DNA from: Mytilus trossulus
Lineage: Eukaryota
Length of the DNA: 64,000 bases
Assembly (NCBI RefSeq): GCF_036588685.1
Contig: NC_086375.1
Span: 71,734,001-71,798,000, forward strand
Direction of reading: 5' to 3'
This document shows positions 276 to 57,104 of the stretch, piece by piece. How positions within the stretch are numbered: position 1 is the stretch's first letter; the number at the start of each line of letters is the position of its first letter. Made by a program: the position numbers and the translations under genes. The notes beneath the pieces are model-generated. The model was given only the letters and a program-made list of their open reading frames with translations. It was not told the origin of the DNA and did no database searches.

Positions 276-319
276 GCGTCACTGATGAGTCTTTTGTTGA
301 CGAAACGCGCGTCTGGCGT
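276..319 (+). ncRNA. Minimal type I hammerhead ribozyme in a retrozyme-like repeat (repeat about 135-345)
   Basis: GCGTCA-CTGATGA-GTC-ttttgtt-GAC-GAAA-CGCGCG-TC-TGGCGT: intact core, stems I and II, palindromic stem III. Predicted cleavage after C313. Confidence 0.8.
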
Positions 320-2980: not shown

Positions 2981-5830
2981 CACGGGTGTCATTCGGTTTA
3001 TCGAGAGAAATGAGCGTGAAAGAATATCTAACGGCGGTCAAGTATTGTGCGACGATCGTGAAAGTTCTGGTAACGGATCGTGAAAGACATTTAATCGAGA
3101 AGACATATGAAAGGTCAATACATATTCTAATTAAATTAATTACACAGACAAATTTACGACAAAATAAAACTGTCTGTCAAAATGGTTCAACATTATGATC
3201 AGTATGTCAGAATATCCAGTTTTAAAAGTTCATAGTTATTACAAAACAACAAAAGGCAGATTACTTCTCGACATTTCAATGACATAAAAAATGTAAACAA
3301 ACATGATTTTTTCACAAATTCGACTAGAAAACCTACTTTAATACGAATAAGGGCATTCTATTTGAATTAATCAAATGATTTTTATAGTTATTTTGTATAA
3401 ACAAATATGAAACTTGGAAGATAAAGAACTATTTACACCAAAATGGATCTTTTGGATCGTGAAAGATCATGTACCGTTTTTTTGAAGATCGTGAAAAGGA
3501 TCGTGAAAGATCTGATGCTACGAAGACGTTCAAAGTTTTCTTCAATTATATCGTAGTTAATATTTGTTATTGGTATTGAGAAAAGCTATATAGGTCAACA
3601 ATCTCAATAGGTTTAAGCTTTTCAAAGTATAAATATTTTCAGAAAATGAAATGTAAAATAGTTGGATGATTGTAGGATGAAGCTTTTTATTGTCATGTGA
3701 AGTACTCACTTATCACGAGTTATAGGATATCCACATTTGGTATATTGGATCTTATAAACTACATGTCCGTCAGACAGGATTCACCTGAACCCGAATTTGC
3801 CTTATTTCATGGATGAAGATTCATTTTTGTGGTCAAGTCCGTATCGCGGATTCGTTAAGCTTTAGGATAAGTGTCTGTTGTTATGATTGTGAGGTGTATA
3901 TTTTGACATCTGCAAGGTTTCAACTGACATTGAACCCATTGTCATGCATCATTCGGCAATGCTCGTTTTATGTTGTCTAGCCTTTGGATATATACCTGTA
4001 TGATATAGCGCCATGGTATTTCGTGTATGGTGTACATGTCTGTTTGCATGTTTCATTAATGACCATAATGCCGTCAATTGTACTTGATATATTGAATGAT
4101 AGAAAGATGTCTATGTCTGGCTGTCGGTCAGGGTTCAAATACTTTTGACCTTATGTTTCGAATTAATTGTCCAGCATAACTTTTATATTTGTCAGTTTCT
4201 AAGGCACTGTAAGGATCGGAACACATTTATTTGGTCTACGGCCTACGGGATATTTGTAGAGATCGGTATGTCATGGTTCATCTGACCTTGCACTTTTTTT
4301 ATTAACCATTGACAATCATAATTTTAAAAAAAATGTGGTATGATTGCAAAAGAGACAATTATCCACAAGAGACCAAAGTGACACATACATTAACAACTAT
4401 AGGTCACCGTACGGCCTTCAACAATGAGAAAAGCCCATACCGCATAGTCAGCTATAACAGGCCCCCATAGTGACAATGTAAAACAATTAAAACGAGAAAA
4501 CTAGCGGCCTTATTTGTATAAAAAAAAATGAACGAATACCAAATATGTAACACATAAACAAACAACAACCACTGAATAACAGGCTCCTGGCTTTGGACAG
4601 GCACATACATTAATAATGTGGTGGGGTTAGACACGTTATTGGGATCCTAACCCTCCCCTTACCTGGGACAGTGGTATAACAGTACAATATAAGAACGAAC
4701 TATAAAAATCAATTGAAAAGGCTTAATTCATCAGATGGACAAAAATACATTAAGCGCATTAAGCGCATTTGACACTTCTAGTAAAACCCCTTATATTATA
4801 GACGTTCCATAACATTAACTATCATAAGTAAAGCAGACAAGACATTACAGCATTTTCGATTAGGTACTTTTAGTCTGCAGTATATAGTTAAATCAATCCA
4901 CATCTGCGTTGTACATACAGAACTTAAGAAAGTACTGTTGCACAAAATGTTGGTTACAATGTATCGTTCATTCTCAAATTACTCATGAAAGATGTTGTTT
5001 TGTTGTAATTTTTTTGTTTGATGGATATCATTTTGGTTTAAACGTTGCATATCCATATTATTGGCTATTAGTAAATAGTGTCAGTCTGCATGAATTGCAC
5101 TTGACCGATTCTCAAAGCTGAATCTTTCAAACTTATCTAGAGATGTTTTAGTTGTTGTTTTTTAACTTTCGAGATAAAGCGTTGAATAAAAAAAAAAGCT
5201 TTAATGTTCATCCTTATCAAAATAGTTAAGAGGCTTCAACCAGTTTCAGGTTTATCAAATGGTAAAAGAAATACTGATTTCTGATTACTAGTAATAAGTC
5301 TAGTCACGCATTATCTTTCACGATCAAAATAATGCGTTGCCTGATCTTTCACGATCAAGTTTGATGGATATTCAACAAATTCAAGGTTTTCATATACAAA
5401 TTAATGCTTTTAAGAGGAGAACATACCTTAATGTTACTGTACTAACAGATACACCAAAGATTACATTTCAAATATATCACGATGAACTGAAACATGACCA
5501 TGATGGTAACAAAGACCGTGTTATTGGTAATTAATTGCATATACATGCATTGCGCCTTTTGTGTTTTTTCATAAAGTGCTGCATATTTTCTCTTTCTTAT
5601 TTCACAGTTATGTTGGGGAAGTTAAACCATTTTGACAGACATATTTTTTTATTCGGATTTGTTCCGCGTTTTGAAAATTAAGCAATATTTTTAAAGATTC
5701 TGACCTAGAATTTCCATTAAATGTCTTTCACGATCCGTTACCAGAGATTTCACGATCGTCGCTCAATACTTGACCGCCTTTAGATATTCTTTCACGCTCA
5801 TTTCTCTCGATAAACCGAATGACACCCGTG
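2981..5830. mobile_element. Non-autonomous DNA transposon with 115-bp TIRs and CAC...GTG termini (Transib/Chapaev-like)
   Basis: 2981-3095 is the near-perfect reverse complement of 5716-5830. Flanks are GTTAA/GTTTA. GATCGTGAAAG recurs as a subterminal motif. A Penelope-terminus fragment is nested at about 4330-4750. Confidence 0.8.
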
Positions 5831-8052: not shown

Positions 8053-8736
8053 TATAATGACAGATAATCAAATAGAGAAAGGAAATGGGGAATGTGTCAA
8101 GCGACAACAACCTGACCATAGAAAAGACAACGCCGAAGGCCACCAATTGATCTTCAATGTAGCGAGAAACTCCCGCACTCGCGTCCCCAATAATGAGGTT
8201 TCTGACTAACGGCCAACAATATAGTTAATAAAAAAAGGTTCATAAGGACCCGAATGCCAAAATTCAGGAAATTGAGGCGTTCGGTCGAATAAATTATAAA
8301 GAAAGACATCAACAAAAAAAAAAAAATATGTACTGCATGAAGAGCTACGTTATTAAAAAATATTGCTTAAACTGAGATTTTATTTTATACTTGTATGAAG
8401 AAATAAAATTGCGTTTTATATATTGAGTGAGAAAAATTCTTTATGAGACCGCTTTGGTACTTTTTTTTCTGTAGCAGCATTAAACTATATAATCATTTAT
8501 CTTCTGCAGTCTTATCTAATATAAATTGAGCTTATTTTCACGATAGAGACTCAGAATATAAAAAAAGATGTGGTATGATTGTCAATGAGGCAACTCTCCA
8601 AAAGGGACCAAAATGACATCGAAATTTTTAACAACTATAGGCCACCGTACGGCCTTCAACAATGAGCAAACTAACGGCCTGATTTATGTACAAAAAATTA
8701 ACGAAAAACAAATATGTAACACATAAATAAATGACA

Positions 8737-8844
8737 ACCCCTGAATTACAGGCTCCTGACTTGGGACAGTCACAAACATAGAGAACTAGGCGGGGTTACA
8801 CATGTTAGCGAGATCCCAACCCTCCCCCTAACTTGGACAGTGGT
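8737..8844 (-). ncRNA. Twister ribozyme-like motif, type-P5 permutation (best-preserved core in the window)
   Basis: ACCACTG.CAAGTT-A-GGGG-GA-GGGT...TAA-CCCC-GC...ACT-G-TCCC-AA-GT-C-AGG-AGCCTG..CAGGGGT reproduces twister core blocks. Other copies: 4568-4675(-), 10920-11029(+), 56061-56169(+). Confidence 0.65.
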
Positions 8845-9699
8845 GTAACAGTAAAATATATTGTGACAGTGCTCAGTAAGGAACACAACTTAAAATTGAC
8901 ACTTATAGATTTGATTTCCAAAGTTATAATGGTGAAATATAATCTCTTTTAGGTGTAACCATGGCAACAATCTGCATTCATTGATACAAAATATTGGAAA
9001 AGGGGGGTGAACATGACACAAAAGTCTAATAAAAATTGGGCAAAAGGAACATTTTAATCAATTAGAGCGATACTTTTCTGAAACCATAGACATATATCTA
9101 TCAAGAGGTCATTTAAAATCATATCCATTTCTGCTCGTTTTTCTATGAAATTGAATTGAAAAAGTGAGCGTATAATCTATGTTGAAAAACACTACAACAC
9201 TTTCTAGACCTATGGGCGGTAGGCCTACGGATAGGAAAATACGGACTGTCCAACAAAATGGCCTATAAAATATGCTAAAAGCAATCTAAATGTTAAATAT
9301 AAACCCAATAAGAAGGCGATATTATTCTTCAACTATCGAAAAATCTATTTTATTGTACAAAAAATTTCATATTAAAAAAAATTCCCATGGCCATAATGCG
9401 AAACTAAACTACTATAACTGTGGTATTGCTACCCAGGAACGTTAAAACACCGACAATCAATCAATAGAATTAAAATATTGTTTTTGTGTTGCTTAACATT
9501 TAGTTTGGAGTTAAATTTGTTCGTTTTTCTCTTGGCTGGACTGTTAAAATATATTAGGGATCAGCTGAAGGACGCCTCCGGGTGCGGGAATTTCTCGCTA
9601 CATTGAAGAGCTGTTGGTGACCTTCTGCTGTTGTTTTTTTCTATGGTCGGGTTGTTGTCTCTTTGAAATATTCCCCATTTCCGGCTAAATTTTAGTAGA

Positions 9700-10016
9700 T
9701 AAGGAGCGAGATATTCCTTCCTGCTTTCTTACTCATCATTGAGTATAATGAAAGTTGTTCTAGATAAGGATTCGAAAAAACAATCTCTCCGCAAACTGTT
9801 TGATTGGAATAGGAACTCTTAAAACACTTGTGCGATATTGTTGCAACTCACAATCCTGCTCCCGTTCAGAATTTCTAATTTTACAGTGTCTAAGTATCTC
9901 ATTCTGTCCCGATCAAACAATTTTGCATCGTATTGGACGTCGATCTGAGTTCGGCACATATATAGCCGAATAACTTTCAATGATGAGATAGAACAGAAGG
10001 AATCTCTCGCTCCTTA
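9700..10016. mobile_element. MITE with ~40-bp TIRs
   Basis: TAAGGAGCGAGATATTCCTTCC...CTCATCATTGA is inverted at 9977-10016. Confidence 0.6.
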
Positions 10017-10067
10017 CCTGATATATATTTTAACAGTCCAGTCAAGAAAAAAAAAATGATTGATTGA

Positions 10068-11288
10068 TACGACAAAATGGACGATTTTTCGTTCCCTATA
10101 GCTAATTTTCCATTTTTTAAATGGTGATGATCCTTTGGCACCATCTTACGGTGTTTATATTTCACAGCTCGTTCGCTATGCCCGTGTCTGTTGTGACTTT
10201 TTTTTTATTTTAACGAACGCAATCTATGTATTTCTGGGAAATTATTAAACCAGGAATATTGGTTACCGTGAATTACTTAAAACCTTTACTAAATTTTTCC
10301 ATAGATATAAAGATTTTGTTTTGAAGTTTGGTTGTAGCTGTAGAAAACTTATTTCAAATGGGATAACACATCCTCATTTTTACGGAAATGTTGTTAACCG
10401 TGCCCGGAAATTTAGAAATGATCCTTGTCAACTTATCTCTCCTTTAAATAAACTTATTCTAAAAGGTTACCAATTCAACACTGTAATAAGATCATTGAAT
10501 ATTGTGTTTATTGGTATAAATATTGATTTTGTTATCAGTAAATTAAAAGCAAACTAAATATTACTGGTATGTTATATTCATAATGGATCGACAGTCTGTC
10601 GATAACTGTAAATTGGCATTGACATTTGCACATGGTCATGTTTATCTCTGACTGTTTATGACGTCTGTACACTAAATCCATTGGATGTTGGGTGTGTACG
10701 GGTTGATAGTTTAGTCTTAGATGCATGATTTTTTTATTAGTTGTTAGTGTCTTTGAACTAGCTGTCAGATAACAGCGAGTACTCTCAGATCTGTTCCTAG
10801 TATCTTTTGTTGTCGGGATGTACAAGTACCCGGCCACGTCCACTTGTATTTTTGTCCATCTGAAGAGTTAAGCCTTATTCAACTATTTTTTATAGTTTGT
10901 TCTTATTTTGTACTGTTATAGCAATGTCGTAGGTTAGGAATAGGGTTGGGATCCCGCTAACATGTTTAACCCCGCCACATTATTTTATGTAAGTGACTTT
11001 CCCAAGTCGGGAGCCTGTAATTCAGTGGTTGTCGTTTGTTTTTGTGTCACATTTTTGTTTTCCGTTAATTTTTTATACAAATCAGGCCGTTAGTTTTTCG
11101 CGTTTGAATTGTTTTACATTGTCATATCGCCTTCTATAGCGGTGCCTTTTATAGCTGACAATGTGGTATGGGCTTTGGTCATTTTTGAAGGCCGTACGGT
11201 GACCTATAGTTGTAAATGTCTGTGTCATTTTTGTCTCTTTTGGATAGTTGTCTCGTTGGCAATCATACCGGGCACATCTTTTTTTTAT
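10068..11288 (+). mobile_element. 5'-truncated Penelope-like retroelement (Naiad-type): RT C-terminus, SECIS, twister-like motif, terminal repeat
   Basis: Degraded YDK.DDFSFPI.NFPFL.GD.PLAPSYGVYISQLVRYARVC reading. The ORF ends at 10557 with no C-terminal GIY-YIG domain. Colinear copy at 55130-56420. Confidence 0.8.
10650..10716 (+). promoter_or_regulatory. Form-2 SECIS element in the 3'UTR of the Penelope-like element
   Basis: GACTG-ttt-ATGA-c-GTCTGTACAC-t-AAA-TCCA-loop-TGGG-t-GTGTACGGGT-t-GA-t...TAGTC gives the quartet, a 10-bp helix II, unpaired AAA and an apical mini-stem. Homologues at 55786-55849 and, decayed, 57721-57785. Confidence 0.7.
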
Positions 11289-11289
11289 A

Positions 11290-12516
11290 TTTTCAAAGGC
11301 ATTTGACAAAGTTAGTCATAGCCTTCTCATCCACAAACTAAATCATTATGGGATAACAGGTAAAACAAATGAGTTGATAAAGAACTTCCTCAATGATAGA
11401 ACACAATCAGTTACTGTAGTGGTGGAGGGAGAAGATCAACCTGAATAACTGTGAAGTCCGGCGTACCCCCAGTATCTGTCCTGGGACCAAGTCTTTTCCT
11501 GTTCTATCTATATAAATGACATGCCTCAGGGGATCCAATCAACTGTACGACTGTTTGCTGATGACACAATTGCGTATGTCACAATTTCATCCGATACAGA
11601 TTCAGCAAACTTTCTAAGGACCTTGACAAACTAGCTGAATGGGACACGAAATGACTCATGAAGTTCCATCCTGATAAATGTAACGTACTTACCATCTCCA
11701 AAAAGCGAACACCAGCTAAATACAGTTACACACTACATATGGCTATACTGTGCCTTGAACATGTCACAGCAGCAAAATACATGAGATGTACCATTGCATC
11801 AGATCTAAAATGGGTTCAACACATTAGCAACATCTGCTCCAAAGCAAACAATACCACCAGTTTCTTTAAAAGGAACTTAAACATCTCCAACAAGTCTATA
11901 AAAGAAAAAGCATATTATGTGTCCCTCGTCAGACCAACATTGGAATATGCTAGTTCAGTATAGGACCCGTAGCAACTAAATGATATTTTATAGGTTGGAA
12001 ATGGTCCAAAGAAGGGCAGCAAGGTATGTTAATTACTATAACAGATACCACAACACTTCATCTGTAAGTGACATGATTGAACATCTAGAATGGACTACAC
12101 TACAAGAACGAAGAAAACAGAGCAGACTGATAATAATACATATAAGCTTAATAACAACTATGATACATCAAATAAAATGATACCAAAATGAACGTCCTTC
12201 CAGGAATAACAACGAAAAAGCATTCAGAATTCCATCATCATGATCATGCAAAACAACAGTTCGGAAGGAGTTTTTCTTTCCTAGAACAATAATTAGAGAG
12301 TGGAACACCTTGCCCAACTGTAAGGTCTCTGTCCCGATTCCTGATTCTTTCAACATGTTTAAAATTAAATTGACGTGTTTTTATTTGCACCTCTATATAC
12401 ATTCCACCTTGTTTTTTTTTGTTTTTTTTAAATTAAAAAATGTATGCATGCGCGCACTCCATAAATGTGACAGGATAGTCAACCAGTTGACGGTCGTCGC
12501 TTACTGGAAGAAGAAG
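11290..12516 (+). mobile_element. 5'-truncated non-LTR retrotransposon (CR1/L2-group) RT pseudogene
   Basis: FSKAFDKVSH, SGVP..SVLGPSLFL..INDMP, LFADDT, KFHPDKC, LVRPTLEYAS and LEMVQRRAAR with stops and frameshifts. Ends in a GAAGAAGAAG tail followed by (TA)n. Confidence 0.85.
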
Positions 12517-16900: not shown

Positions 16901-19900
16901 AAAATGAAAACCCCAGATATTTATATATATTCAACATATAAAAACTGCTACACATTTCGAAGTTCCTGTTGCTATAGTAACACACCATGAAACTTTCTTA
17001 AAATGACATAAAGCTTTATTTCTTCCCTAACACCCTGTATATTTTTCGAAGAACAATTGACACCTACTGTTCTCTACCAAATAAAACAATATATTTTAGT
17101 TGAAAATTGTTTTATATTTTAGAACCAAACGTTCTTTGTCATCAAGTAGTTCTAGCAGTGATGATGAGCTGATATTAAGGGCCAAGAGACGGGAAGAGGA
17201 AGAGAAGAAATTGGAATTAGAAAGACAAAGATTACAGTTAGTTTCACCATTTTTTTTTATTATAAAATCTTTATTTAAAAAAAACATTTAACAGATTAAT
17301 GTGTAATTATCATTAGGATTCATGTTTATGTTTTTACCTAAAATCCTAAATAATTTTATGAATAGGTTACACCTTTAAGTATATATGCAATTTTTTTTCT
17401 GGTTTTCTATCTTAATTATCAGGCTTATATTACTGTTTTATTGTCATGATTGTTCTAGATATCTACTTGAAATGTCATATTTTCTTGTTATCATTTTTAT
17501 CATATGTATGCACCAGTTTTAATGTCAAGTTAAAAGAAATATATATCTGTTCTAGTTGGACCTGTCTCGATGTCTGAGTACATGCAGGTGTTAGTGTGTC
17601 AACCCCTTATTTTCAAGTTTTACTGTATTCTTAATTGTCTAATTAATATATGATGTACATATCTGTTAATTGTTATAGGAAACAAAAAGAACTTGAAGAA
17701 AAACTGATTGAGGAAGAAGTAGCTCGTAGAGTTGAAGAATTGGTCTCTAAAAGGGTAGAAGAAGAGTTAGAAAAACGTAAAGATGAAATCGAGGCTGAGG
17801 TTAAGAGGAGGGTCGAAGAGGCAAAAAGGATCATGGAGGCTCAAATGTTGGAGGAATTGGAACGACAAAGAGAAACAGAAATAGAAAACCAACGAAAGTT
17901 GGAGGTATGGGTAAACCTGATTGGATATATATTTCAGCTGCCATATACCCTGGTTGTGGGGGGAGGGCAGCATTACCTTTAAAACCGCTTAAAACATACA
18001 AAATTTTCTCTAAACTATTTTAAAACAAAAGTTAGAATTATCTTTGGTTAAGTTTGATTAATTTGTAAAGGATATGCTGCAAGCCTTGGTCCTTAAATAT
18101 TTAAAGAAAGAAATGCAGATTTGTTGATTATACGTTTTTCCCTGAAAAATTTTCTAGTGTTTTTTATTTAATATTTGTAAAGTATTAAAGTATGTTAAAT
18201 TTAAGTAACCAGTTCTAACTTTAAAGCTATTCCATTTGAATAATATTTAGAAAAACCTGTATTAGAAGCTTTCTATGCCCATTTCCTCACCAATAGTTGC
18301 ATTTAACAGCTATTGAATATTGCTGCTTTATAGTGCATGACATGGTCTTTCTTCTAAATGTATATGTAATAAGCGTTAAAAGTTATATAACTTGGATAAA
18401 CAATCAATTACATTAAAAACAGGGATAAAATAAGACATACCATTTAGTTAAATGTAACCCTAAAATTTAAGTCAAGATGTTTTTTAATGAACAATTTTAT
18501 TGAAGTTATGTGGTATCCCAACTAATTGACAACCTGTAGAATTTTCATGTTTTGTTATCAAAAAGTAAATATTTTGGGAAATTATTTTCTTCTATTTACA
18601 ACATTTGTAATGCATGACATTTATTTATCAAGATATTTATATTTAGACATCAAATATTTTGTTTATGCCTACTTCATGCCCATACCTTCGATACACATAT
18701 AGGAACCCAAGAGCAATTAATTCTGCACTTTCATGATATATATGAACAAATCTGCATTAAAGTCCATGAACAAATGTTAAGATCTGTGATAATTCTGATG
18801 CCAAGTTTATTGTTTTTATGCAGTTTTAAAAAAAAAAATATATATAAAGTCTGTTTGATAAAACAATTTGTATAAACATCTTTAGAAATAACTCCTGAGT
18901 TGATTTTTTTTAAAGAAATGATAGATATTTTGAACTGCAATATAATTGTTAACTTCCACAATTTCAGTAATTATTTTTATTGATTTATCAGAAATTATTG
19001 CAAAAGAAAGTAAAAAACCTTGTTTTGTGCATTTTTCAGAAGTATTTTTGATTTGCACCTCTGACTTTAGATTTTGTCAGTGGATATGAAATGCACAAAA
19101 CAAGGTATGAGTGGAATAGAGAGATAACAATACAAGTATTTGACATTTCTTGGCATCTGAACACTATAAATAAATCCAAAACAAAACTGCATGAAGATAG
19201 ACATTTGTGTACATGTATCATTTATTTCAGGAAGTTTGTAAAATTATATTACATGAATATGGAACAAAATATTTATATGGAAATCCCATTTTGGAAGTTT
19301 GTTTTAGGTCAAAGCTGTTTGTTTTTACAGAATTCAGGAAAATATTGGATAAAACTATATGCAAGTATTGAAATGTTTTCTTCCATCTTTCACTGTGATG
19401 TGGTTTTTGCTGTACATGTATATCCCTAGGTCCTTTAAATTAAAAACATTTAAACAATACTTATAAACAGACCATAAAATTGAGAAAGGAAATGGTGAAT
19501 ATGTCAATGTATGATTGATAAGTAAATTAAAAGGTCAAAATCTGTTGGCATCAAATTCTGTGAATTACTGCCGTTTTTTCAACAACAAAAATCTGCCAAT
19601 AGTGTTTATAATAAATTTATTTTACTGAATACTTCAAGTTCTTTTATAATTTTGTTTCATAAACACTCTGAGTAGTGTCTGAAATAACTTTTTATTTTAT
19701 TCTGCAATTCCTATATTTATTCAGGCTTCATTTTTTGTAGGATAGAAAAGCATTCTGATCCCCATACATGTACATTTAGTTCTTGGATATCCTTAATGAT
19801 ATACACCCTTTTTAGAGAATCGTGCATTAAACAGTAAAAACCACATGTTACTCCTGTGCAATTAAAATATATAGTATAAATACATATGTTCTTACCAAAG

Positions 19901-27945: not shown

Positions 27946-28798
27946 TGTTCCGAATCGTCGTTGTTGGAATAATTATATAACAGGGAAGAACAAGAGCTGC
28001 AAATGTTTGCACCTGTCCTAAGTCAGGATTCTGATGTACAGTAGTTGTCGTTTGTTTATGTAATATATACGTGTTGTGTCTCGTTTTGTTTACATATATT
28101 AGACCGCTGTTTTTCCCGTTTGAATGGTTTTACACTAGTAATTTTTGGGGCCCTTTATAGCTTGTTGTTTGGTGTGAGCCAAGGCTCCGTGTTGAAGGCC
28201 GTACTTTAACCTATAATGGTTTACTTTTTAAATTCTTATTTGGATGGAGAGTTGTCTCATTGGCACTCACACCACATCTTCCTATATCTATCATTTACAA
28301 TACAGTTGATATATGGTTATTAAACTTATATTAGTATATAGAGAAAAGATAACAAGACTTATATCTTGTTAAATCAGACAGAATTAATTTAGCTTTTTTT
28401 TCTAATCTGTTGTAAGCAATGCTTAAATAGGTTTTGGTTCATAAAAAATATGCTAAAAATAACCCAACAAACAAACCAAACAACAAACTATTAATAAAAC
28501 CTATTCGTCACGAACGTATTGAAATTCTACTTTCTATTAATTCTATTTTCATGCTTTTTAGATATATTTTTAAAGATATGTTAGGTTGTCTGTAATAAGG
28601 GTAATTGTAGTATTCCCCTATTCAATAGTCCTAAATCGATTAAACAAACGAATCCGGGACACAAACCATCAACAACACAAGGAAAAATCCGAACAAACAG
28701 AAACACTAAACCGCTACACAAACAAACGCTAACATGCATAGAAACGGTCTATTTGATAACGACTTCCATATTCCTTACTTCTATATGTGTTGGTTTAA

Positions 28799-32900: not shown

Positions 32901-35900
32901 TTTATAAAGCACAAATTACACCAATAAGAACGTCAAATAAGGAAACGGGGTATGTATGTAAATGAAACAACTATCCACCAGAATTCAAATGACGAAGATA
33001 AAAACTTATATTTTTTGTGCATGCCATCATATAAGTTCGCTGTCTTTAAAATGGTATAGTTATTAAACTTACACAAATGTGCCAAAGATTACATGGGAAT
33101 ATCCTCTTTGCACCATGCAGATGTTTCTCTACCTTTTCGACTCTCCATGGACCTTTTATTTCTGTATCTACCTCGCTCAAGGTCGGTCTAAACTTGCAAC
33201 TCTTTGGTATGATCTCCCACATCTGTTGTGAGACAACTACATTGCGCCTACTTTTTTCTCTATATTTACGTATTGGATCTTTTGACATGCATTGCATTAC
33301 ACGTTCTCTAAAATCTTGAAATAAAATACCTAGTTTTATATGCAACATCATTTTGAAAGTATGTGTGACCAGACAGATAATAATGCTAACATTTTGATTT
33401 AAAACTGAACCCTTTAATACTTTTGTTTAAAATATTATTTTCTTTCTTTTTTTTTCATATTTAGTACATTGTATTAGTAATTTTGTTGGTATACGTTCAT
33501 CGAGTGAAATAAGTAGACAACTATAAAGGTTTGGTAATTTTACCTGGTAGTACGTGCTTTAAATAATTCACAAAGAATCCCCACGCTAATCCATATGCAA
33601 CATTTCCGACTGGAATTTGGGATTTCATTGACACATCTTTCCCTACAGAAAATAAATAAATAATGTTATAAACGATTAAATAATATGTAATGATGAAAAT
33701 GATCAATTAACCAACTCAATTGCACTGAGATAATTGTTTTCAAGTCGTATATAGTATGTGACATTTGTATCCAAAACCATGCAGAAATGATTTAAAATCA
33801 TAGAAGGTGAATGCAGTGACCTATATATTGGAGGCAACATTATTCAATTAAAACATTGAGTGTATTCACCCTTAAATTGTCAGTCACTGCATTCCGAGAC
33901 TTCTGCTACAATTTACAAATACTAAAATGAAGTTTAGATCATGTGACTTGATTTATGTTTTTTTTAATGAAATGTTGGGATTTTTAATACACCTTCTTAG
34001 GAATGTAGACATTTTGGTTTCAATAACAAAATACCACTGAACTGTTCATAAAAGAAATTTCAAAATTCCACACTAAAAGCATAAAAATCAGTTTATTCGA
34101 GCGAAGGGTGTGTAAAAGAGTTTCCTAAACATTTTTTACTGAAAACCCACCAACGAGAGGTAAATAGTGAGGAAAATCAATTATGATGTTTGGAAACTTT
34201 CATTGACAAAAATTAATTACTTTCGATACAACGTAAACATTTATGAATATTTTGTTTTAATTTTTTTTAACATAACTCACAATACTGCCTATAAAAGAGG
34301 GACAAAAGATACCAAAGGGACAGTCAAACTCATAAATCTAAAACAAACTGACGACGCCATGGCTAAAAATGAAAAAGACAAACAGAAAAACAATAGTAAA
34401 CATGACACAACATAGAAAACTAAAGAATAAACAACACGAACCCCATATAACCTTGGTAGATTTTTGAAAATATTATATGCATGTATTTAAACACAGAAGC
34501 ATGTTAATTTGTGGATTTATGATGTTTATCTTTGTTCTGTAGTTTCATTCTTGGGAGGGTTTGTAGTCTGATATAAAGATCAAACATAAACAACATAAAC
34601 TTTTGAGAAAAAATAAGAAAATATCATATATGGTAGAAACAATTACTTTAGTCAGAAGTATTTTCTTTATCTTTAAACATTTACAAAAACGTTTTATAAA
34701 GATGTGTAACTTGTTAACCTATATAATTTAACACAAGTGACTATGTTGGTGATACTGAAAACAAGCTGTATAAACTGCACAGTAAATTTATTATAGGTGT
34801 GTGCCTTTACTTTTGTTCTTGGTTTTTTTTCCATACAAGTTTTGGTGTTTGCACAAAATAGAAACAAAAGAGCACAATAACAGATCAATGTATCTAAAGT
34901 AAATGAGGTTACATCATACCTTTAGATACTAGTATGTCATACTTGTTTAATACTTACTAAGTATTTACCATTGTTCCCTACATATTTGTACAGTTTAACA
35001 TGTGTATACTAATGGAAACTTACAGCTTAACGCCTATAAACCCATTTAAGGTGCCAAACTTTTACTTTTAAATGAAAATTTAGAAAACCAAATGGTAATT
35101 TATTACACTTTAAATTGTTAAATACAGACTTCAAATGCTACAACTGTTTTATCATATCCCTCTTTTGTAGGTAGCAGATATTACGTTCAAACCGTATTCA
35201 TTGATATATACCTCTCACAGCATCAACAATCATATCCAAGTAATCTTCGTCACGGTCTATACTTATATGCCTAGCCCATCTGATGAATGAGGGAATAGCT
35301 GTGGGTGTGATACCATTCAATACTGGAATTACGTTCAACGAGTTCGTCTCTATGCCAATGCTTAAAATCTCTGCCAAAAACATGCTGATCATATCTCTAT
35401 TTGATGACTCCGTGATGAACAAAATGACCCATCTTGCATCTCGTACACGTCTTTCGATTTCAGACAAAGAATCACCATCTCTCTCGTCTGATGATGCAGG
35501 TCGGGCCTGGGAATACCGGATTTTGTTTTTGTCGAGGTGGTCTTTCACTTTAAAAACTAATTTTGTGTCCTTGGCGTGATATAATAAACACACTTCGTCT
35601 CTGTAATGTTCTGTTTCTTCTGCTTTTTTCACTCCTTCCTGTTTAGAAAAAAAGTAAAGCTTGGATCAACAAAATTTTTGTGGTTTTCTTTTTTCCTCAT
35701 TGCACGGACTTTTTTTCAAAAGTACATACATGTATATTTAAAAAGGTGTTGTTTAATCTTCTATCACAATTATCTCCAATCACTGCCCTTAAGTTCATTG
35801 ACAAGTAATATAATAAGGATAACAATTATATGACAAAACTCCGGAAAAAATTCAGAACAGAATCAAATGGCAAAATTAAGAGTTCAAACACATCAAACGA

Positions 35901-38900
35901 ATGAAAAACAACTGTCATAGTGTAATTTCATGACTTAGTATCGGTATTTGTCTTATGTAACAAATAATGGAATAAACCTAATCTTATAACTAGCTAAACC
36001 TCGCACTAGTATGCAGTTCGCATAGAACTCCATCATATTGACATCAATGTAAAAGCAAAACAAACAGATATATAACGTAAAAATGTCAAATATTGGGAAA
36101 CAAGAGTCAGCATTGTATTTGAATCTTAATAACTATAAAAACAAACAACTATGTCAACAAAGAAAAACATAATGAATGGTATGCAGGCACTTTATCAGTA
36201 AAGCAAATAAGCAAGAATGAAAGACAATGATAAAAAAAACATGGCACGGTTCCTCATCTTTCTGTTTAAAATCATGCTGATCATATATATCTATATTTTG
36301 CACATGTTGTTTCTTTTTTGAAGGAAACTATTTAGGCATATTAATATATTTAACAAATTGAATACAAACTAGATGTTGCCCTCGTTATCGTGTCATCTTA
36401 TTAATCAAAGTATCGACAAACCCTTAGGAAACACATATCTGATAGAAACTAAATGTGCACACACGTTTCATGTACAACTAGTAAATGTAAATATGGAGTC
36501 CTTTTGGTTAAGTAGCTCCTGATTTGAGAAAGTGTGATGTACATATTTGTAGGAAGGTCGGACGAACGAAAAAATTATATAAATATCTGTATAACATACC
36601 GCTGCCTTTTCGAGTTGATTTTTAATAACGTCATGAACGCCCTGTCTTAGTTGGTATGAAATAGTAGCAGATTCTCCTTTTTCTTCGTCTAAAATGGAAA
36701 CAAAACTCTACATGCCGAGAAATTGCCTCCGTTGAATGTTTGCAAACATCCCATAGAGAAAACTGCTCGGATGAACAATGTTGATCATGTGGTACATGAC
36801 AGTGTATTAAGCAACACGTACATCAATTTGTTGAATGCATTCAAGTCTTTAATCTTCCAATAGGAGGTCCACTGGAGTTTTGAAAGAGCATTTCTTTTTA
36901 TCTCTTGACCTAGAACTCATAGACAAGCGTGTTCTTAACAAGTTTACTTTTTTACAAAATTATTATATTTCTTAATCTTTGAATGAATACAGACAATCCT
37001 GAGAACAGCATGCAAAGGTTACTACACTAGGGTGTTTTGACTTTGGAATATCGCATCAACATTATAGTATACACATATTTATAGTAGCAAAGAGTGGAAA
37101 CAAGCTTAAAATAATCGCCCTAGAAACCAAATAGTTCTCAAGGCAAACTTGCTATTGTCTGAAAAAACACTGACTATTTACTAGTTAATAATTTCAGAAT
37201 CTTTTTTCTAGAACAAACATTTCCCGTATTTTTATAAAACACAATCGTTATGTATGTCCAAGAAAATGTTTGCTTCCAGTAAACAGTTTTTAAAAGATTT
37301 TTGAAATATTGAAAGTATTCATCATTTATAAGAAAATAAATAAATACACAGTCAGGTATGATAATCATTTGAAATGTTTCATTGCAGTTGTAATCAACAT
37401 ACAGTTACTTACCATCGTACATCAACATTTTAGTCAATACACCATACTGTTTGTACTTCTCATGATTAAGGATTTCATTTAGGTAATGGTAAAACCTTTG
37501 AACCTCCACATCTCTCTGTGTTTTTGTGAAACTACATAAAATTTCTTCTTTGATTGTCCCAAGTGCACAAAATGCTCCTGGGTATTGGGCAACACAGAAG
37601 TATTCCTAAATAATTCAAAATGAATAATGTTTATTGTAACATAATACGGCATTTTTCCCTTTTTACCCGATAATCTGCTTAATAGTTTGGTTTCTGAAAA
37701 ACCATGGTTTATTATAAAGATTTATATATATGAATCCATTAAAGAGAATCATGACATACTTTGAAATTGCAACTTCATATAGATGGGCGGAGCTTGGACT
37801 ATGATTTATATTTTAATCTGATATTTTTTTTTATGTTAAACCCTGATTTAAACTCCGCCTTTCTTTTACCCCTCCGTGTGATTGATAGTCTAGTGAATGC
37901 ACGAGGACAAGGATTTCGTTTGATTTACAAATAGGATTTCTACTTTCTGGGAATTCCGTCTCCAAACAAACCATTAATTTTCGGAAAGGAAGTGGGTATT
38001 ATTTACACCTGACTGACCTGAGCCAGATTATTTTTGCCAGTGCATTTAATAAATGTAATAAATTGTGTTAGGGAAAATCTTATTTTTATAAGAATTTTTT
38101 TATGACATATCCTATCAGGAATATTTTGTTCTAAAACAATCCTAGGCCCCTACGGATTCGTCGTTTAAATGTTTCACTCGTAAATAGCATGGTATATATA
38201 TAATACATAAAATTCGGAATGAAAATGAGGAATGTGTGAAAGAGACAACAAACCGACCAAAGAGCATAAAACACCCGATGGCAACGAATGGGTCTTCAAT
38301 ACAGCAAATTTGAAAATCTAGCTATATACAACGTGAATGAAATTATATACAAATCACGTTTAACAAATTTACCGCCACAAAAAAAAATGACATTATTACT
38401 CTATCAACATTTTCAAAACCCAAAGTTTAAGTCTTTCGGAATTTTCTCTTGCATATAAATTGTTTCATTTATTTGTTTGTAAAATTTATCAAACCGAGTT
38501 TTTTTTAAAACATAACGACGATTTGATAAAGGAGAATGTTGATTTAATGATTGATATTTACAAAGCGTCCAGCGGTAATTTTTTCAAACATATAACTATA
38601 TAAGCAATCGAAAAATTTCCACAGATTTGGCCATGGTGACGTCCGGGCGATAATTTGAGAAGAAAGGTGATTATGCTCATAGTGATATGAACCTTGTCTT
38701 TTCCGTTGGTTCTACAGAATGTATTAACAGATTTAGACTAGTACACGGTAAAATAAAACTTATCAGGATAAAATATAAAAAAGAATGTGATGACCAAGGA
38801 GACAAATGTCCAAAAGAGACCAAAATGACACAAAAATTAACAACTATAGGTAATCGTAAGGCCTTCAACAATGAGCAAAGCCATAGTCGGCTATAAAAGG

Positions 38901-41587
38901 CCCTGAAATGACAATGTAAAACAATTCAAACGCGAAAACTAACGGGCTTATTTGTGTAAAAAGTTCGTTTGGGTATTCTGTACCACTAGGTTGCTGTCTC
39001 ATTCCCATTTACTACACAACTTCTACTTTTCGTATCGAAAACCATTTTGTGGCATACTAACGTAAAAGCTATGTAGAACATAACATGATACTTACGCTTT
39101 TAATGTGCCCGTTCTTATCCCTTTCTGTAACTTTACACACTTTTGGGCTGTATGGTCTGTGATTTATTATTATTTCAATTTGTCCTACCTCCTCAACGTC
39201 TCGATCATCATCACCAAGTTTACCTGTACTTCTTCCACTATGTGGTAATAACATGAAGAGACAGAGAGGCATATGCCCAGGGTTGTCATTAAACCAGTCA
39301 GACTTTTTTATTCCTTGTGCAAGCTCTAGAAGTACAAGTATTAATGACAATGTACAATATATATACAAAGATCAGCAAACGTTCGTCACGCTGTGTTATT
39401 GTCCCTAGTGGAACGCATTGCGGGGAACACGGATAAACTGTTTGTCCGTCCGTCTTGTCTTGTAAGCTCTCTCATGTGCCTGATGTTCATGAAACTTAAA
39501 ACATAGGTTTTAATCAATGATGTATCTGGCAAACTCGAAAATCAGTACTGACTCACTATTTTTAAAAGAGTTATAATACCCCTTGTAAACATTTACTATA
39601 TACTGTAAACATTTCATTGTTTATAGCGCTCTCATGTCATGAATCGAATTCTTTTCATAGATTTATGAAACTTGTTTCATAAGTCTCGTTTGTACAATTC
39701 TTTTCGAATTTTTATGAAACGTATAACATAGGTTTGTGTCAGCAATGTTTCGGACAAATTCGAAAATCAGTGCTGATCAATACAAGAGTTTACCCTACGC
39801 CATCTTGAAATGTCAAGTATATGGAAAATTGCATTATTAGCGCCATTGTTTAAAGATAGGTATATAGACACACTTTTTTTTTTAATTTCCATTCGTAAGA
39901 TGAATTACAAAAACAGAAAGTGCTGCTTCTATTTAACCTAGTAGAACATTTCTCCGTATGTCAAAAGTTGACTCTCTGGGGTATTTATAGATAACGTGAG
40001 CGGCATAACTAGTCAAATCATGATAAAAATACGTCTCCCTAAAATTGCAAAACGTAGCAGCTAGTCAAAGTTGCTTTAAATAAATATAAGACAGTCAGTA
40101 ATAACTGTTCTTTCCTATATAAAGATATTTAAGTGTTTCTATCAAAAGATTTACGACAAAGGGGATGCTGGTTTGTCCCTTAATATCAATTTATCTTTCT
40201 TGGACGGTGATGTTCGTCTTGGATTCATAGCACCATTAGTTTAATACAATGCATCACCGTCAGTAAGTCAGGGATGTCATTAACATAAGTATTTAAAACA
40301 TAGTTCACTCAATTCTTTTATACATACAATTTGGTTTGGAAGCTGACTGTTACTGTAAACACCTGCCTATCGTTACGGTAATGTTGTTTATAGATCAATT
40401 TAACTCCGAGTCTGTACCCATACGATTAAAGTTGAAACAAAATCTTTAAATGTCGGAGTCTTGTATGATCTTGTATATTGAAGATACGGGGAAAAAATTG
40501 TGCACTAAAATTCTATTTGGTTATACATGCTATGGAAACTCAAACGTGATGAACATTTATTTCTAATAATGATACCTTAAGCTATATATTTATACCTGGG
40601 AGAACAAGCTCAAGGTACCCTGTGAAATGTGACCATGCCATTCCAGCGGCTAAATTACCAGCAGGCAACACAGAGTCAATGGTGACATCAGCTACAAAGG
40701 TTAAAGAGATTCACATATAAAATACGGAAATTAAAATTAATAAAACGAGTACTCCGATTTAATCAATATGGTTTATTGAGAATAAAGATATATATAAGGT
40801 TGTACACTTTAGAAACTATTTTCATTTGGTTTTTCTTTCTTAAAGGTACAAATACTTACAAACAACATCCTTATGAAATCAGGATTAGTTAACTGTACTA
40901 TAAATTGTCTTTGAAAAAAAAGTAATAAGTGACTGGGTTGAAGGAAGTTCAGAGCGCAATCCAATTAACATGTATCTGTTTCCAGTTCATTTCAAATGGC
41001 AGCCTACACTAATTGAACATAATTTTAATATGCGCACGTATACACTTTTGACAAAGTTAAAAAAAATAAAATGTCTTTCATTTGGACATTATTGGGTTGT
41101 TAAATCTAAAGTACTAACCACGAATCATTTCAATAACATTCATGATACATTTCTCATGTAAATTTCTTTCGAGGATCACATGACTGGCCAACTGTAGCAT
41201 GGGTAACTTTGGAATATTCTCTTCACCAAGGCCGTCTTTCAAAAGAATGATTAGTCGGAGCTTATTGGTCTGCAAACTTTTCTCCAATGCTAATAGTGTT
41301 TCCAGCGAAAAAGAGAAATTTTCTATGCTCTCTTTAGAAAGAATTAATAACATTTTCTTACTCGCTGAAATAGCTTGATCAATTGCCTGGTACGTTCTAA
41401 ATCCGGGCATGATGTGTTCCTCTGGAGAAACATAGGCCACTTTATTGTTTTGAAAAATGGTAAAAATGTATTTAGATATTTCGTACTCATCGTCATTGTT
41501 ATACATTACAAAGACATCAGCATTTTCTACGGCTTTCAACCACGGATCTTCATCGTCCTTTACATTAGGGTCTCTACCGGTCGCCAT
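29946..41587 (-). CDS. STING: Tandem TIR-STING-TIR-STING protein (soluble STING/TMEM173 homologue), 722 aa. Coding exons: 41587-41119, 40691-40596, 39325-39096, 37605-37413, 36688-36600, 35638-35212, 33642-33544, 33314-33073, 32423-32216, 30061-29946
   Basis: All nine introns are GT-AG and join in frame (2169 nt, ATG to TAA). Exons 1 and 6 encode TIR folds (DVFVMY...SKKMLLILSKES; EVCLLY...RWVILFITES). Exons 2 and 7 encode the STING dimerisation helix (GNLAAGMAWSHFTGYLELVLP; GNVAYGLAWGFFVNYLKHVLP; cf. human [20 protein letters not shown]). Exons 4 and 9 carry the EYATP-region equivalents (AQYPGAFCAL; AEYLTPVKTL). An acceptor just upstream of the ATG (exon starts 41596) implies a 5'UTR exon. 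Confidence 0.93.
31511..32204. mobile_element. Kolobok-like MITE in TIR-STING intron 9
   Basis: TTAA-AGGGACACTAGCT...AGCTAGTGCCTCT-TAA. Related copies at about 1217-2160 and 26983-27490. Confidence 0.7.
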
Positions 41588-41987
41588 TTTAGGAAACTAA
41601 AACATATAATTAAAAATTATGTTTCTCACATTTTATCATCAAAATATTTTTATTAATCTTCAATTCAAAAACCATACTTTCAAAAAAAACTTTATTTTGT
41701 TAAGCAGTGTGCATACCATACAGTGAAAAAATGTGTAAAGAAAAGGAAAATTACACTTATTTTGTTTATTTAAGAAACAGACAATGTTTCCATTTAGTGT
41801 TTCTTTGTAGATGTATTCTTATTTACTATGGTGTTCAACAAACTTAATTTTAATCAAAGTAAATGTGTTTGAACCGACTTCCAAACAATTGAAGATTCTG
41901 TAAGAAGGAGTGCCTCAATTTTACTCATGAATGCTGAACAACAAATCCGTAAACATGAAATAACACGTTTTGTTTTATTTCTCTGAA

Positions 41988-44095: not shown

Positions 44096-45768
44096 TTTAC
44101 ACACTTATCAATCAATTGTTATAAATCAATTCATAGTCGGTGATGTAACATAACCTAAGTAAGAATTGAGTAATAACGAAAATACTCTTCTATAAATTTC
44201 TTCATATATTTTACATGATATATACCACGTTGGACTATACATGTTGGTGGTAATTGAAAAGATGTAAATATAACAGAAATAATTATTTATTCATTTGCGA
44301 AAACATAATCTCATAACTTACTAGATATAATTGCATGTAAACAAATTACTTACTGCGAAATAAAATGGTTTCGTTTCTTCCTGCTATCTATTCAATCTGG
44401 GAAAATCACCAATCAACAAAGTGAAAATAAGGCTTTCTGTGCACCTACTTTCTACTTCGTATTAACACTGTATGTACATTTCATACTAAATATGAAATAG
44501 TAAATAATATAAAAGATATAGTTTTATCAGTTATAATAACAATTAGACAGCAATATAAATAAATTCAAATATAGCTTGTGGAATTTACTGAACTATTTTT
44601 ATCACATATCCTGTGATTTATAAAAATCTATATATAGATAAAGTTTCAAATTATATTAATAAGTTTTAGCACTAAACACGACCACAAAGCTATTATAAAC
44701 AAAAGCAGCTAAATAAAGATTGTAAACAAGTGTTTACTCAATGTTACATTATGTGAAACAATTAAAAACTTATTTGCATTATAGGTACTTTAAAATCTAA
44801 TCCGTTATTTGTTGTTTTATTCTGAATAAATTCAATTATTTCGCTTTTTATCTGTGCAAGTGATTTTAAATAAGTCCCTGATTTTGGATAGGTATTTTAT
44901 AAAATCCAGGAAAAGCACATTTACTTATCTATAATTGATAACCTTCAAAAAAGGTGAAAACAAACGCAAAAAGTATATGATTGAAACAAATACCTACATA
45001 ACCAACCAGGCATGCTGAAAATCCCTAATTTGAAAAATAGATACATTGTAACATATACATGACTACAAAATATACAAACAACTGACAAGTTAAAAATGTA
45101 TATGACATTATAGATTTAAGAAGATGTGGTATGGGTGCCAATGAGAAAACTCTCTCATCCAAGTCACAATTTGTAAAAGTAATTTACCATTATAGATCAT
45201 TATAGATCAAAGTATGTAGTCCTCAACACGGAGTCTTGACTCTGACACACAAAACAACAAGCTATAATTTGCCTCAAAAATTACATGCGTACTGTGAAAC
45301 TATTCAAACGGGAAAACCAACGGTCCAATCTATATAAAAACCGAGACACGAGATACACTTATAAACCACTTCAACAAACGACAATTACTGAACATCAGAT
45401 TCAAGTTACTGATTACGAAAAAGTTCAATTTGGGGTCCTCATCCTAATCCGTGTTTTTAATAGTTTTGTGGATTCAAAAACAAATTACAAGATTTGGAAG
45501 AGATTAAACAAAGCTTTTATGTTCAGTGTTAATTTGCAGGATAAAACAATATTCATACAGTGTAGAAAAATCATTCATGCAACAATTATTGTGAAGAAGG
45601 TGAAAAATTAATTAATTCTTTTTTTTTTCTTTAATAAGTAGTGTTCATTTTCTATCCAATATCATTTTAGTGCGATATGTTAGGGAAAGATGAAGGACTA
45701 AGAAAGGGAACCAATGAAAGCTTGCAAGATACAGCGCTTGTTGTCTCATAAATGGTTTCGATATCACC

Positions 45769-46181
45769 TGTAAATAGTTATCAAAGGTACCAGGATTATA
45801 ATTTAGTACGCAAGACGCGCGTTTCGTCTCCATAAGACTCATCAGTGACGCTCATATCAAAATACTTATAAAGCCAAACAATTACAAAGTTGAAGAGCAT
45901 TAATTGAGTATCCAAAATTCCAAAACGTTGTGCCAAATTCGGCTTAGGTAATCTATGCCTGGGATAAGAAAATCCTTAGTTTTTAGAAAAAATCATAGTT
46001 TTGTAAACAGGAAATTTATAAAAATGATCACAATATTGATATTCATGTTACCAAACACCGAAGTGTTGACTACTGGGCTGGTGATACCCTCGGGGACGAA
46101 ATGTCCACCAGCAGTGGCATCGACCCAGTGGTGTTAATATTTATCAAAGGTACCAGGATTACAATTTAGTACGCCAGGCGC
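45769..46181 (-). mobile_element. Retrozyme-like unit (363-nt period) with hammerhead ribozyme at 45808-45851
   Basis: TCAAAGGTACCAGGATTA recurs at 45781 and 46144. The minus strand reads GCGTCA-CTGATGA-GTC-ttatgga-GAC-GAAA-CGCGCGTC-TTGCGT. Confidence 0.75.
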
Positions 46182-56500: not shown

Positions 56501-57104
56501 AATACTAAAAGGAACAAAGCTTGGGTGCGTACATGGTTATATGAGTGAATTTGGCTTTAATAAATAGTCCGTCACGTTTTTCTGATATAACTTTAGTGAC
56601 GATATGTAATAACGGCGCTGTAACCCCACTGTAACTCAACTCAGAGATCTATACTAAGGAATTAAAATTATTGTTTAGTGTTTAATTTACATTATAGTTG
56701 ACAAATATGATTTATCTAAATTTTTGAAAAAGAAAACATTGAAAAAAAATAGTTGCTGGATAAAATGGTATACAATGCAATCTAGTAATTAAACATGATA
56801 AGACTGAGTGCGTACAAACATTCGCCATTTGTTGGTCAGAACCTGTAGATTCTTGTAGTAAGATTGATCTGCTAATATTTATATATTGCGACAATGAGGT
56901 TCGTTTAACGCATTGAATATAAATACAGTGGTATAAAAACACAAAACCTTCAATTCTGAGGAAGATTGTGATTTGTTGATTTTCTTTTCAGGTACTGTTG
57001 GCGACTGGAAGAACCATTTTACAGTACAACAAAATGAAGACTTTGATAAATTTTATCAATCGCGCATGGACGAGTTCAATATCCCATTCCAGTATGAGCT
57101 TTGA
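47581..57104 (+). CDS. Cytosolic PAPS-dependent sulfotransferase (SULT1-like), 294 aa. Coding exons: 47581-47725, 49095-49321, 49805-49934, 53789-53883, 54841-55015, 56992-57104
   Basis: 5'-PSB loop TYPKAGTTW, catalytic His in KTHL, 3'-PB motif RNPKDLCVSYYHF, YEDMK, RKGTVGDWKNHFT and the dimerisation motif KNHFTVQQNE (KxxxTVxxxE). GT-AG introns join in frame (885 nt). Confidence 0.95.
51388..53180. mobile_element. CG-rich fold-back/MITE-derived element in sulfotransferase intron 3
   Basis: About 51488-51860 is an imperfect inverted copy of about 52800-53175, rich in CTACGA/TCGTAG subrepeats. Confidence 0.65.
55130..56420 (+). mobile_element. 5'-truncated Penelope-like retroelement (same family as 10068-11288) in sulfotransferase intron 5
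   Basis: FLDLD...KIYDKRDDFSFPIVNFPFLDGDVPLAPSYGV.ISQLVRYARVC remnant followed by the same 3' non-coding modules. Confidence 0.8.

Follow-up and report, generated by a model that had tools for sequence, protein, structure and literature searches.

A SECIS element in the 3' end of a truncated Naiad retrotransposon of Mytilus trossulus, and related copies with five in-frame UGA codons at cysteine positions

In eukaryotes, selenocysteine (Sec) is inserted at UGA codons through an RNA hairpin, the SECIS element, which is bound by SBP2, with the UGA being recoded with the help of eEFSec. We analysed a stretch of 64,000 nucleotides of the Mytilus trossulus genome (hereafter the window) and conclude, with a probability that we would put at about 0.88, that the hairpin at positions 10650 to 10716 is the SECIS of a Naiad retrotransposon whose intact copies carry five UGA codons at cysteine positions, very likely read as Sec. 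The window copy itself is dead, with zero UGA sites and a broken twister ribozyme. Naiads of this kind, belonging to the Penelope-like elements (PLEs), have been described from two clams and two spiders; these have 3-4 UGA codons, and their SECIS follows the stop codon at a distance of 1-21 nt (Craig et al. 2021, PMC8557442). The same paper describes the Mytilus Naiads Naiad_Mgal and Naiad_Mcor as a separate Cys-only lineage, which its accessible text does not mark as selenoproteins. Both selenoprotein Naiads and the idea that they might donate SECIS elements to host genes are already known from that text. To judge from the sequences, what appears to be new here is the set of five Sec positions, including one in the CxC motif, the recently active families that bear them, and a covarying permuted twister with palindromes in place of helix P1.

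The copies of the element in the window, their parts and the neighbouring features are as follows.
10068 to 11290, + strand: Naiad (Penelope-like) copy 1, 5'-truncated and intergenic; identity to the family majority 89%
10068 to 10557, + strand: frameshifted C-terminal remnant of the RT ORF, with the stop codon TAA at 10555-10557
10650 to 10716, + strand: form-2 SECIS element, with AUGA at 10658-10661, helix II, AAA at 10674-10676, an apical mini-helix and GA at 10705-10706
10737 to 10888, + strand: third conserved structured element, between SECIS and twister
10929 to 11017, + strand: putative circularly permuted twister-like ribozyme, open at P5, mutated in copy 1
11018 to 11290, + strand: rest of the 3' end, which in tandem insertions is the pseudo-LTR preceding the next unit
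55082 to 56413, + strand: Naiad copy 2, 86% identical to the majority, in sense orientation in an intron of the sulfotransferase gene, with its SECIS at 55786-55849
56071 to 56157, + strand: damaged twister of copy 2
57722 to 58005, + strand: copy 3, older and decayed (70%); its SECIS remnant, at about 57720-57790, now folds poorly
4326 to 4749, - strand: short 3'-end copy of the same family, with twister and 3' end and without SECIS
8556 to 8860, - strand: a second short 3'-end copy of the same kind, also without SECIS
9554 to 9694, 8066 to 8181 and 38201 to 38300: 3'-end fragments of Sec-Naiads of the type of locus L107, the first abutting copy 1 across a small element
27996 to 28291, 45109 to 45402 and 54537 to 54732: 3'-end fragments of Sec-Naiads of the type of locus L100
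276 to 319, + strand: type I hammerhead match, 32 bits
45808 to 45851, - strand: type I hammerhead match, 28 bits
13563 and 17647 to 17907, + strand: ARGLU1-like gene
48911 to 57050, + strand: sulfotransferase gene

The hairpin at 10650-10716 has the AAA 12 nt after the AUGA, a helix II of 10 bp (10663-10672 with 10694-10703) and a short apical helix, and folds at -20 kcal/mol (z -2.3). When the whole window was compared with 4227 Rfam families, the SECIS_1 model (RF00031) gave a match with precisely these ends, scoring 33.4 bits (E 0.0088), short of its gathering score of 35 bits. The height of this score is due to the complete pairing of helix II: among 56 family copies the window copy is the sole one with 10/10 pairs, 42 of the 56 having 9 and the family state being a U-C mismatch, and six other family copies score 23-27 bits with the same model. 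Three changes are private to the window hairpin and all of them preserve or add pairs; its full pairing is most simply ascribed to chance. From the RT stop codon, the start of the hairpin is 92 nt and the AUGA 100 nt downstream. The preliminary description of this DNA had proposed a form-2 ATGA...AAA...GA geometry about 100 nt past the RT stop, pairing largely maintained in the copy at 55786-55849, and an ORF without a C-terminal endonuclease, and our analysis bears it out on each of these points. Thus, the SECIS of copy 2 retains AUGA/AAA/GA and most of the pairs despite a 3-nt deletion and 7 substitutions relative to the family majority, with Rfam giving no match to it at E<=1, and no endonuclease is encoded downstream of the RT remnant's stop in the window copy. 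The further statement that the hairpin stands just upstream of the twister is right as to the order and wrong as to adjacency, the twister remnant at 10929-11017 lying 212 nt downstream of the SECIS with a third conserved element in between.

The hairpin is conserved well beyond the window. We aligned 15 hairpins with MAFFT, three from the window family and 12 from related loci spanning 50-100% RT identity, with the ends set by eye. The AUGA, AA and GA are nearly invariant in this alignment, and helix II is paired in 81% of the cells as against 58+-3% after shuffling (0/500 shuffles). Covariation in helix II reaches 0.757, compared with 0.30 for shuffled alignments and at most 0.31 for slid registers, in a control that ignores the relatedness of the sequences. 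Double changes are seen in 9 of the 11 helix II pairs, a count equalled by 160/500 shuffles and hence by itself not above chance. Within the window family the polymorphisms that distinguish lineages fall in loops or preserve pairs, and RUGA, AA and GA are all retained in 48/56 copies; the near-majority copy L093 folds weakly (z -1.0). Among 20 related loci, seven have an Rfam SECIS_1 match downstream of the stop, the scores of relatives being 22.7-32.3 bits and all below 35. The distance of the SECIS from the stop in these families is 55-140 nt. Altered cores were observed in the 3' UTRs of L099, L104 and L119 (AUGC; UUGA/GUGA).

The copies that extend further upstream contain the UGA codons that such a hairpin would serve. 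For the window family, a 5' probe had 43 matches, of which 38 were fetched, and codons were scored wherever the flanking sequence resembled the majority to at least 75%. TGA occupies the second Cys of the zinc finger in 21/22 scored copies, the Cys before GIY-YIG in 21/23, the first Cys of the CCHH motif in 23/25 and the first Cys of the CxC motif in 29/32. At a fifth Cys column, 8 aa after the DKA motif, 14/28 copies have TGA and 12/28 have TGC or TGT. The background over the other 868 codons, leaving out ~45 codons around a T run, is 35 TGA in 22,941 cells. The codon at the fifth site is linked to the one three positions before it, 12 of the 14 TGA copies having GTT there and 9 of the 12 TGC/TGT copies GTG, which implies that the source lineages differed in, or exchanged, Sec and Cys. 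An intact ORF was found in none of these 38 old copies. In the genome searched (1.3 Gb; C1-C14, 60-113 Mb each), the window family has ~6,900 first-look candidates, and most copies are 5'-truncated. Copy 1 has no UGA to recode because truncation removed all the UGA sites, its RT remnant beginning far downstream of the last of them. The idea of a selenoprotein-coding parent, with in-frame TGA aligned to Cys in longer copies and an RT-SECIS-twister order at the 3' end, is likewise upheld: five such columns are conserved, the N-terminal GIY-YIG region together with the five TGA codons indicates a selenoprotein-type Naiad as the probable parent, and the 3' order holds in the window family and its relatives.

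A young sister family (L124-L143), whose copies are ~99.5% identical to each other, preserves the complete reading frame. Among 20 of the 40 copies listed, seven preserve an ORF of 1001 codons in which TGA occurs just five times (aa 52, 83, 94, 381 and 519), one has a sixth TGA and 12 are broken or short; the longest frame without read-through is 482 codons. Site by site, TGA is present in 20/21, 21/21, 21/21, 21/21 and 21/21 copies. In 10/20 copies an upstream 3' piece is directly joined, as in the PLE pseudo-LTR. The unit is 4,445 bp long, compared with 3.4-4.4 kb for Naiads, and the family is probably still active. The same family is represented by a metagenome contig, L100 (79% RT identity), whose frame of 1003 codons has TGA at precisely these five sites, and it was detected in the window's genome at 97-100% identity. 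Other relatives use different subsets of the same five sites, namely four in L107/L108, four in L114 and two in L115, with pieces of the L107/L108 type occurring in the window's genome at 91-98% identity. No relatives were found in the sets of genome contigs and viral contigs that were searched. In the protein P0121 Trp occupies four of the five columns, and it is probably a Sec-Naiad in which the gene caller read TGA as Trp.

The encoded protein has the zinc finger, the CCHH motif, the KR-rich block and the CxC and DKA motifs of a Naiad: C-x4-U-x2-C, U-x4-C..H..H, the RNNRSHGKR block, U-x-C and DKA. The GIY-YIG region reads IY-VT-U...GIQYVGQT at aa 89-108 of the 1001-aa ORF. Pfam GIY-YIG gave no direct match in L131 of the young family or in L107, and matched the relative L115 at E 5e-4; the 1001-aa ORF aligns unbroken (35% over 929 aa) to the protein P0133, which passes the Pfam GIY-YIG cut-off. 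In the young family as in the window family the ORF terminates after the RT, and the endonuclease region is N-terminal only. The 15 best PDB matches of an AlphaFold model (mean pLDDT 86.9) are all TERT structures, as expected for a PLE.

In 54 uninterrupted homologues Cys stands at the five columns in 37/38, 39/42, 39/42, 53/54 and 52/54 of the rows that have a residue there. Cys is hence tolerated at all five positions in relatives, as would suit a leaky or context-driven read-through in which UGA is read as Cys or Trp and the SECIS is a relic. However, five serial leaky read-throughs would be expected to leave almost no RT, and the SECIS-specific AUGA/AA/GA along with helix II is maintained by compensatory change across the UGA-bearing families. 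The loci L116, L117 and L121, which have no UGA in the available part, also have no Rfam SECIS match, a weak argument as five motif-bearing loci of the UGA lineages are equally unmatched. Taken together, these observations make leaky read-through very improbable as compared with recoding of UGA as Sec.

Selection also bears on the status of the UGA codons. The dN/dS ratio between the window-family majority and L100 is 0.126, and 0.137 for the part upstream of the last UGA, and it is 0.11 between L107 and L108; these sequence comparisons show purifying selection that evidently acts through the UGA sites. RNA was sought in four short-read runs, the species label of which is that of the best-matching records and may not be the window's species. 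An old copy of the window family has thin cover on both strands in the four runs, as from passive transcription of many copies. In contrast, on an intact young copy (97% likeness) one of the runs, X21, gives 2-16-fold cover in one mate direction versus mostly 0-3 in the other, across the whole unit, which would fit a sense transcript, provided that the library is strand-specific in the usual way. Five reads of this run span the junction of the 3' end with the 5' part of the young unit. No sense transcript of the young family was seen in the other three runs.

Alternatively, the UGA codons might be real stops, the families being non-autonomous and copied in trans by Cys-only Naiads, with the hairpin a SECIS-like structure recognised by the RT. 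Such helpers have their counterparts in Naiad_Mgal and Naiad_Mcor, known from Mytilus; moreover, most copies are broken, 13/20 young copies are without a clean ORF, and the RNA evidence is thin. A non-coding passenger, however, would not retain a 1001-codon frame with a dN/dS of ~0.13 on both sides of the stops. Nor would it show TGA alone, at Cys columns alone, at five sites in several families, or exchange TGA with TGC/TGT between lineages. We consider real stops about as improbable as leaky read-through, and Sec remains by far the preferred reading of the five codons.

The closest known systems are the clam elements Naiad_Scon and Naiad_Mmer, which share the N-terminal GIY-YIG, CxC, DKA and RT and have a SECIS behind the stop (PMC8557442). 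UGA likewise stands in them in place of the Cys preceding GIY-YIG, of the first Cys of CCHH and of the residue 8 aa after DKA, and by eye their N-terminal protein sequences are visibly similar to that of the window family. Going by the accessible text of that paper, several differences stand out. The families studied here have five UGA in place of 3-4. One lies in CxC, a site that the text does not list and which is Cys in Naiad_Scon and Naiad_Mmer, and another in the zinc finger, where the text lists UGA for the spiders alone. Further, the SECIS is 55-140 nt behind the stop versus 1-21 nt, the SECIS of the window family is of form 2 whereas the text describes type I, and the Sec-Naiads here are from a mussel, while the mussel Naiads described there (Mgal and Mcor) are of the Cys-only lineage. 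The spider elements Naiad_Sdum and Naiad_Smim share Sec at the second Cys of CX2-5CxxC, at the Cys before GIY-YIG and at DKA+8; they differ in belonging to another lineage and in that no Sec is reported in CxC or CCHH in that text. No later paper on Sec-Naiads was found in the literature searched.

Downstream of the SECIS, two more structures recur. The nearer one, of the type at 10737-10888, is also found behind the SECIS in L100, L104-L108, L111, L114 and L115. It has a long closing helix, with double changes in 8/17 predicted pairs, and a conserved core of UGC...CAG-(N)UAA-CUG-C-N-AGUA, and is a candidate binding site for the RT. A CUGAUGA at its end was considered as half of a hammerhead core and rejected, since it takes part in pairing in the fold and lacks a GAAA partner. 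Rfam detected no hammerhead inside any copy of the element; the two hammerheads elsewhere in the window (276-319 and 45808-45851) are probably retrozyme copies.

The second structure is the permuted twister fold, recognised by alignment and not by an Rfam model. The same fold is seen in the window family and in L100, L102, L104-L109 and L115. Over 10 aligned sequences, including the two damaged window copies, 88% of the cells are paired versus 80% after shuffling, and double changes affect 14/32 pairs as against 6.7 (0/500), distributed over P2, P3, P4, P5, T1, T2 and both palindromes. In the same 10 sequences P2, P4, T1 and T2 are paired in 85, 92, 97 and 100% of cells, and P5 in 77%. The Rfam model twister-P1 (RF03160) gives only partial matches of 13-24 bits against a cut-off of 67, and twister-P5 gives no match at E<=10 in stretches of 461 nt. 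A canonical P1 is absent, since no direct helix forms between the strands on either side of L1; its place is taken by a weak hairpin of 3-4 bp with a linker of 5-7 nt, or by two palindromes without loops, each 8-10 nt long, with centres that vary yet remain self-complementary. Two segments of this kind are predicted to pair at -15 to -17 kcal/mol, with 0-4/300 shuffles in each case being as good. In copy 1 the palindromes are at 10947-10956 and 10959-10966, the cut is predicted by analogy at 10967^10968, and mutations affect P2, P4 and the G preceding AGGG. Read ends in the four short-read runs, from libraries ill suited to this purpose, do not pile up at the predicted cut; the nearest accumulation is of 5 fragment ends 12 nt upstream of it, with equal ones elsewhere.

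As P1 is dispensable in vitro for twister (PMC5408937), and PLE hammerheads with a palindromic helix III cleave as dimers (PMC6765202, PMC7761336), it is a reasonable hypothesis that the twister copies may act as a dimer via their palindromes. The fold resembles the type-P5 twister (PMC5408937) in P2, P4, T1, T2, optional P3 and P5, the U^AA, and GAGGG followed by UUG(G/A). In its role at a retrotransposon boundary it is comparable to the twister variants at the 5' end of Perere-3 (PMC8501958). To judge from its sequence, it would differ from known twisters in residing in a PLE pseudo-LTR, in having two loop-less palindromes as P1 and in having no Rfam twister-P5 match. With the minimal hammerheads of PLE pseudo-LTRs (PMC6765202, PMC7761336) it shares the position in the pseudo-LTR, a palindrome replacing a closed helix and the occurrence in tandem copies. 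These are, however, of another ribozyme class, and Naiads are reported to be without canonical hammerheads in the accessible literature. Read by eye, the published consensuses of Naiad_Scon and Naiad_Mmer also contain the twister fold, with other palindromes; the word 'twister' does not occur in the text and supplement text of PMC8557442. We found no twister in PLEs and no palindrome-dimer twister in the literature searched, though the alignments of Roth et al. (2014) or the 2060 T-variants of PMC8501958 may include them.

These observations suggest a scheme for the propagation of the elements. By analogy with the eukaryotic Sec pathway, host SBP2 and eEFSec would bind the Naiad SECIS and recode all five UGA. 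Since the RT core lies downstream of all five, its synthesis would require five Sec insertions, and transposition would hence depend on the selenium supply of the host. The Sec residues might serve as metal ligands, in C-x4-U-x2-C plus U83, in U-x4-C..H..H, and in U-x-C..H with U519. With less certainty, and by analogy, the twisters before and after the unit in partial tandems could release unit-length RNA, taking the place of the PLE hammerheads, and the flanking twister copies might pair through their two palindromes. In its full form the scheme has a large clade of bivalve-type Naiads in which an obligately dimeric permuted twister, formed by the two copies on either side of a tandem unit, frees an uncapped, perhaps circularised, unit RNA encoding an EN-RT with five Sec. 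Selenium from the diet would then control some of the most abundant transposons of the genome, and their truncated copies, numbering thousands, would be a lasting supply of SECIS for new selenoproteins of the host; as a whole we hold this to be possible though rather unlikely.

Sec-coding transposons, formerly represented by four consensus sequences, are here seen as several abundant families of one genome, one of which was recently active and has intact copies, so that the dependence of transposition on Sec is open to direct test. Five Sec in a protein other than SelP, all at probable metal-ligand cysteines, exceed the number in any Naiad in the accessible text of PMC8557442. Such elements are liable to be mis-annotated as dead, because gene callers blind to UGA recoding cut the ORF at 482 codons or read Trp. 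The twister may explain the absence of the typical PLE hammerhead from Naiads, a puzzle raised in the literature, and a natural palindrome-dimer twister, if true, would be a new ribozyme architecture.

The preliminary description had further suggested that 5'-truncated copies scatter SECIS modules through the genome. As to numbers this holds: a 26-nt word from the SECIS core has 587 exact occurrences (control 0), which is a lower bound on the number of modules, as the window's own copies do not match the 26-mer exactly. Use by the host, a possibility already proposed and left open by Craig et al. (2021, PMC8557442), was not found: in 11 loci of 5.4-8 kb (BLAST E<=1e-6), which hold 5 matches to deiodinase and 7 to UGA-bearing GPx, no Naiad SECIS lies in sense orientation behind these matches. 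The test is a narrow one, as in the 9 of these loci scanned with Rfam no SECIS at all is detected, the hosts' own elements included. Two SECIS-bearing Naiad pieces lie antisense at host selenoprotein loci (L148 and L153). Co-option of the window copy's SECIS by a host transcript might be suggested by the three private changes that keep or add pairs and by the sole 10/10 helix II among 56 copies, but we consider it very improbable. Three changes are too few, and the copy was chosen for looking best; moreover, copy 1 is situated 2.3 kb before the ARGLU1-like start codon (13563), copy 2 is intronic, and the host selenoprotein genes examined have no sense Naiad SECIS behind them.

Some minor observations may be added. 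The host deiodinases include five single-stretch genes with one TGA each, at C8:12569674-12730282 and C2:48048458-48049051, four of which form two duplicated pairs. In the window, a 320-bp MITE-like element with terminal inverted repeats (9697-10019) separates the L107-type fragment from copy 1, and two ORFs, at 35198-35665 and 41114-41596 (-), resemble TIR-domain exons by eye.
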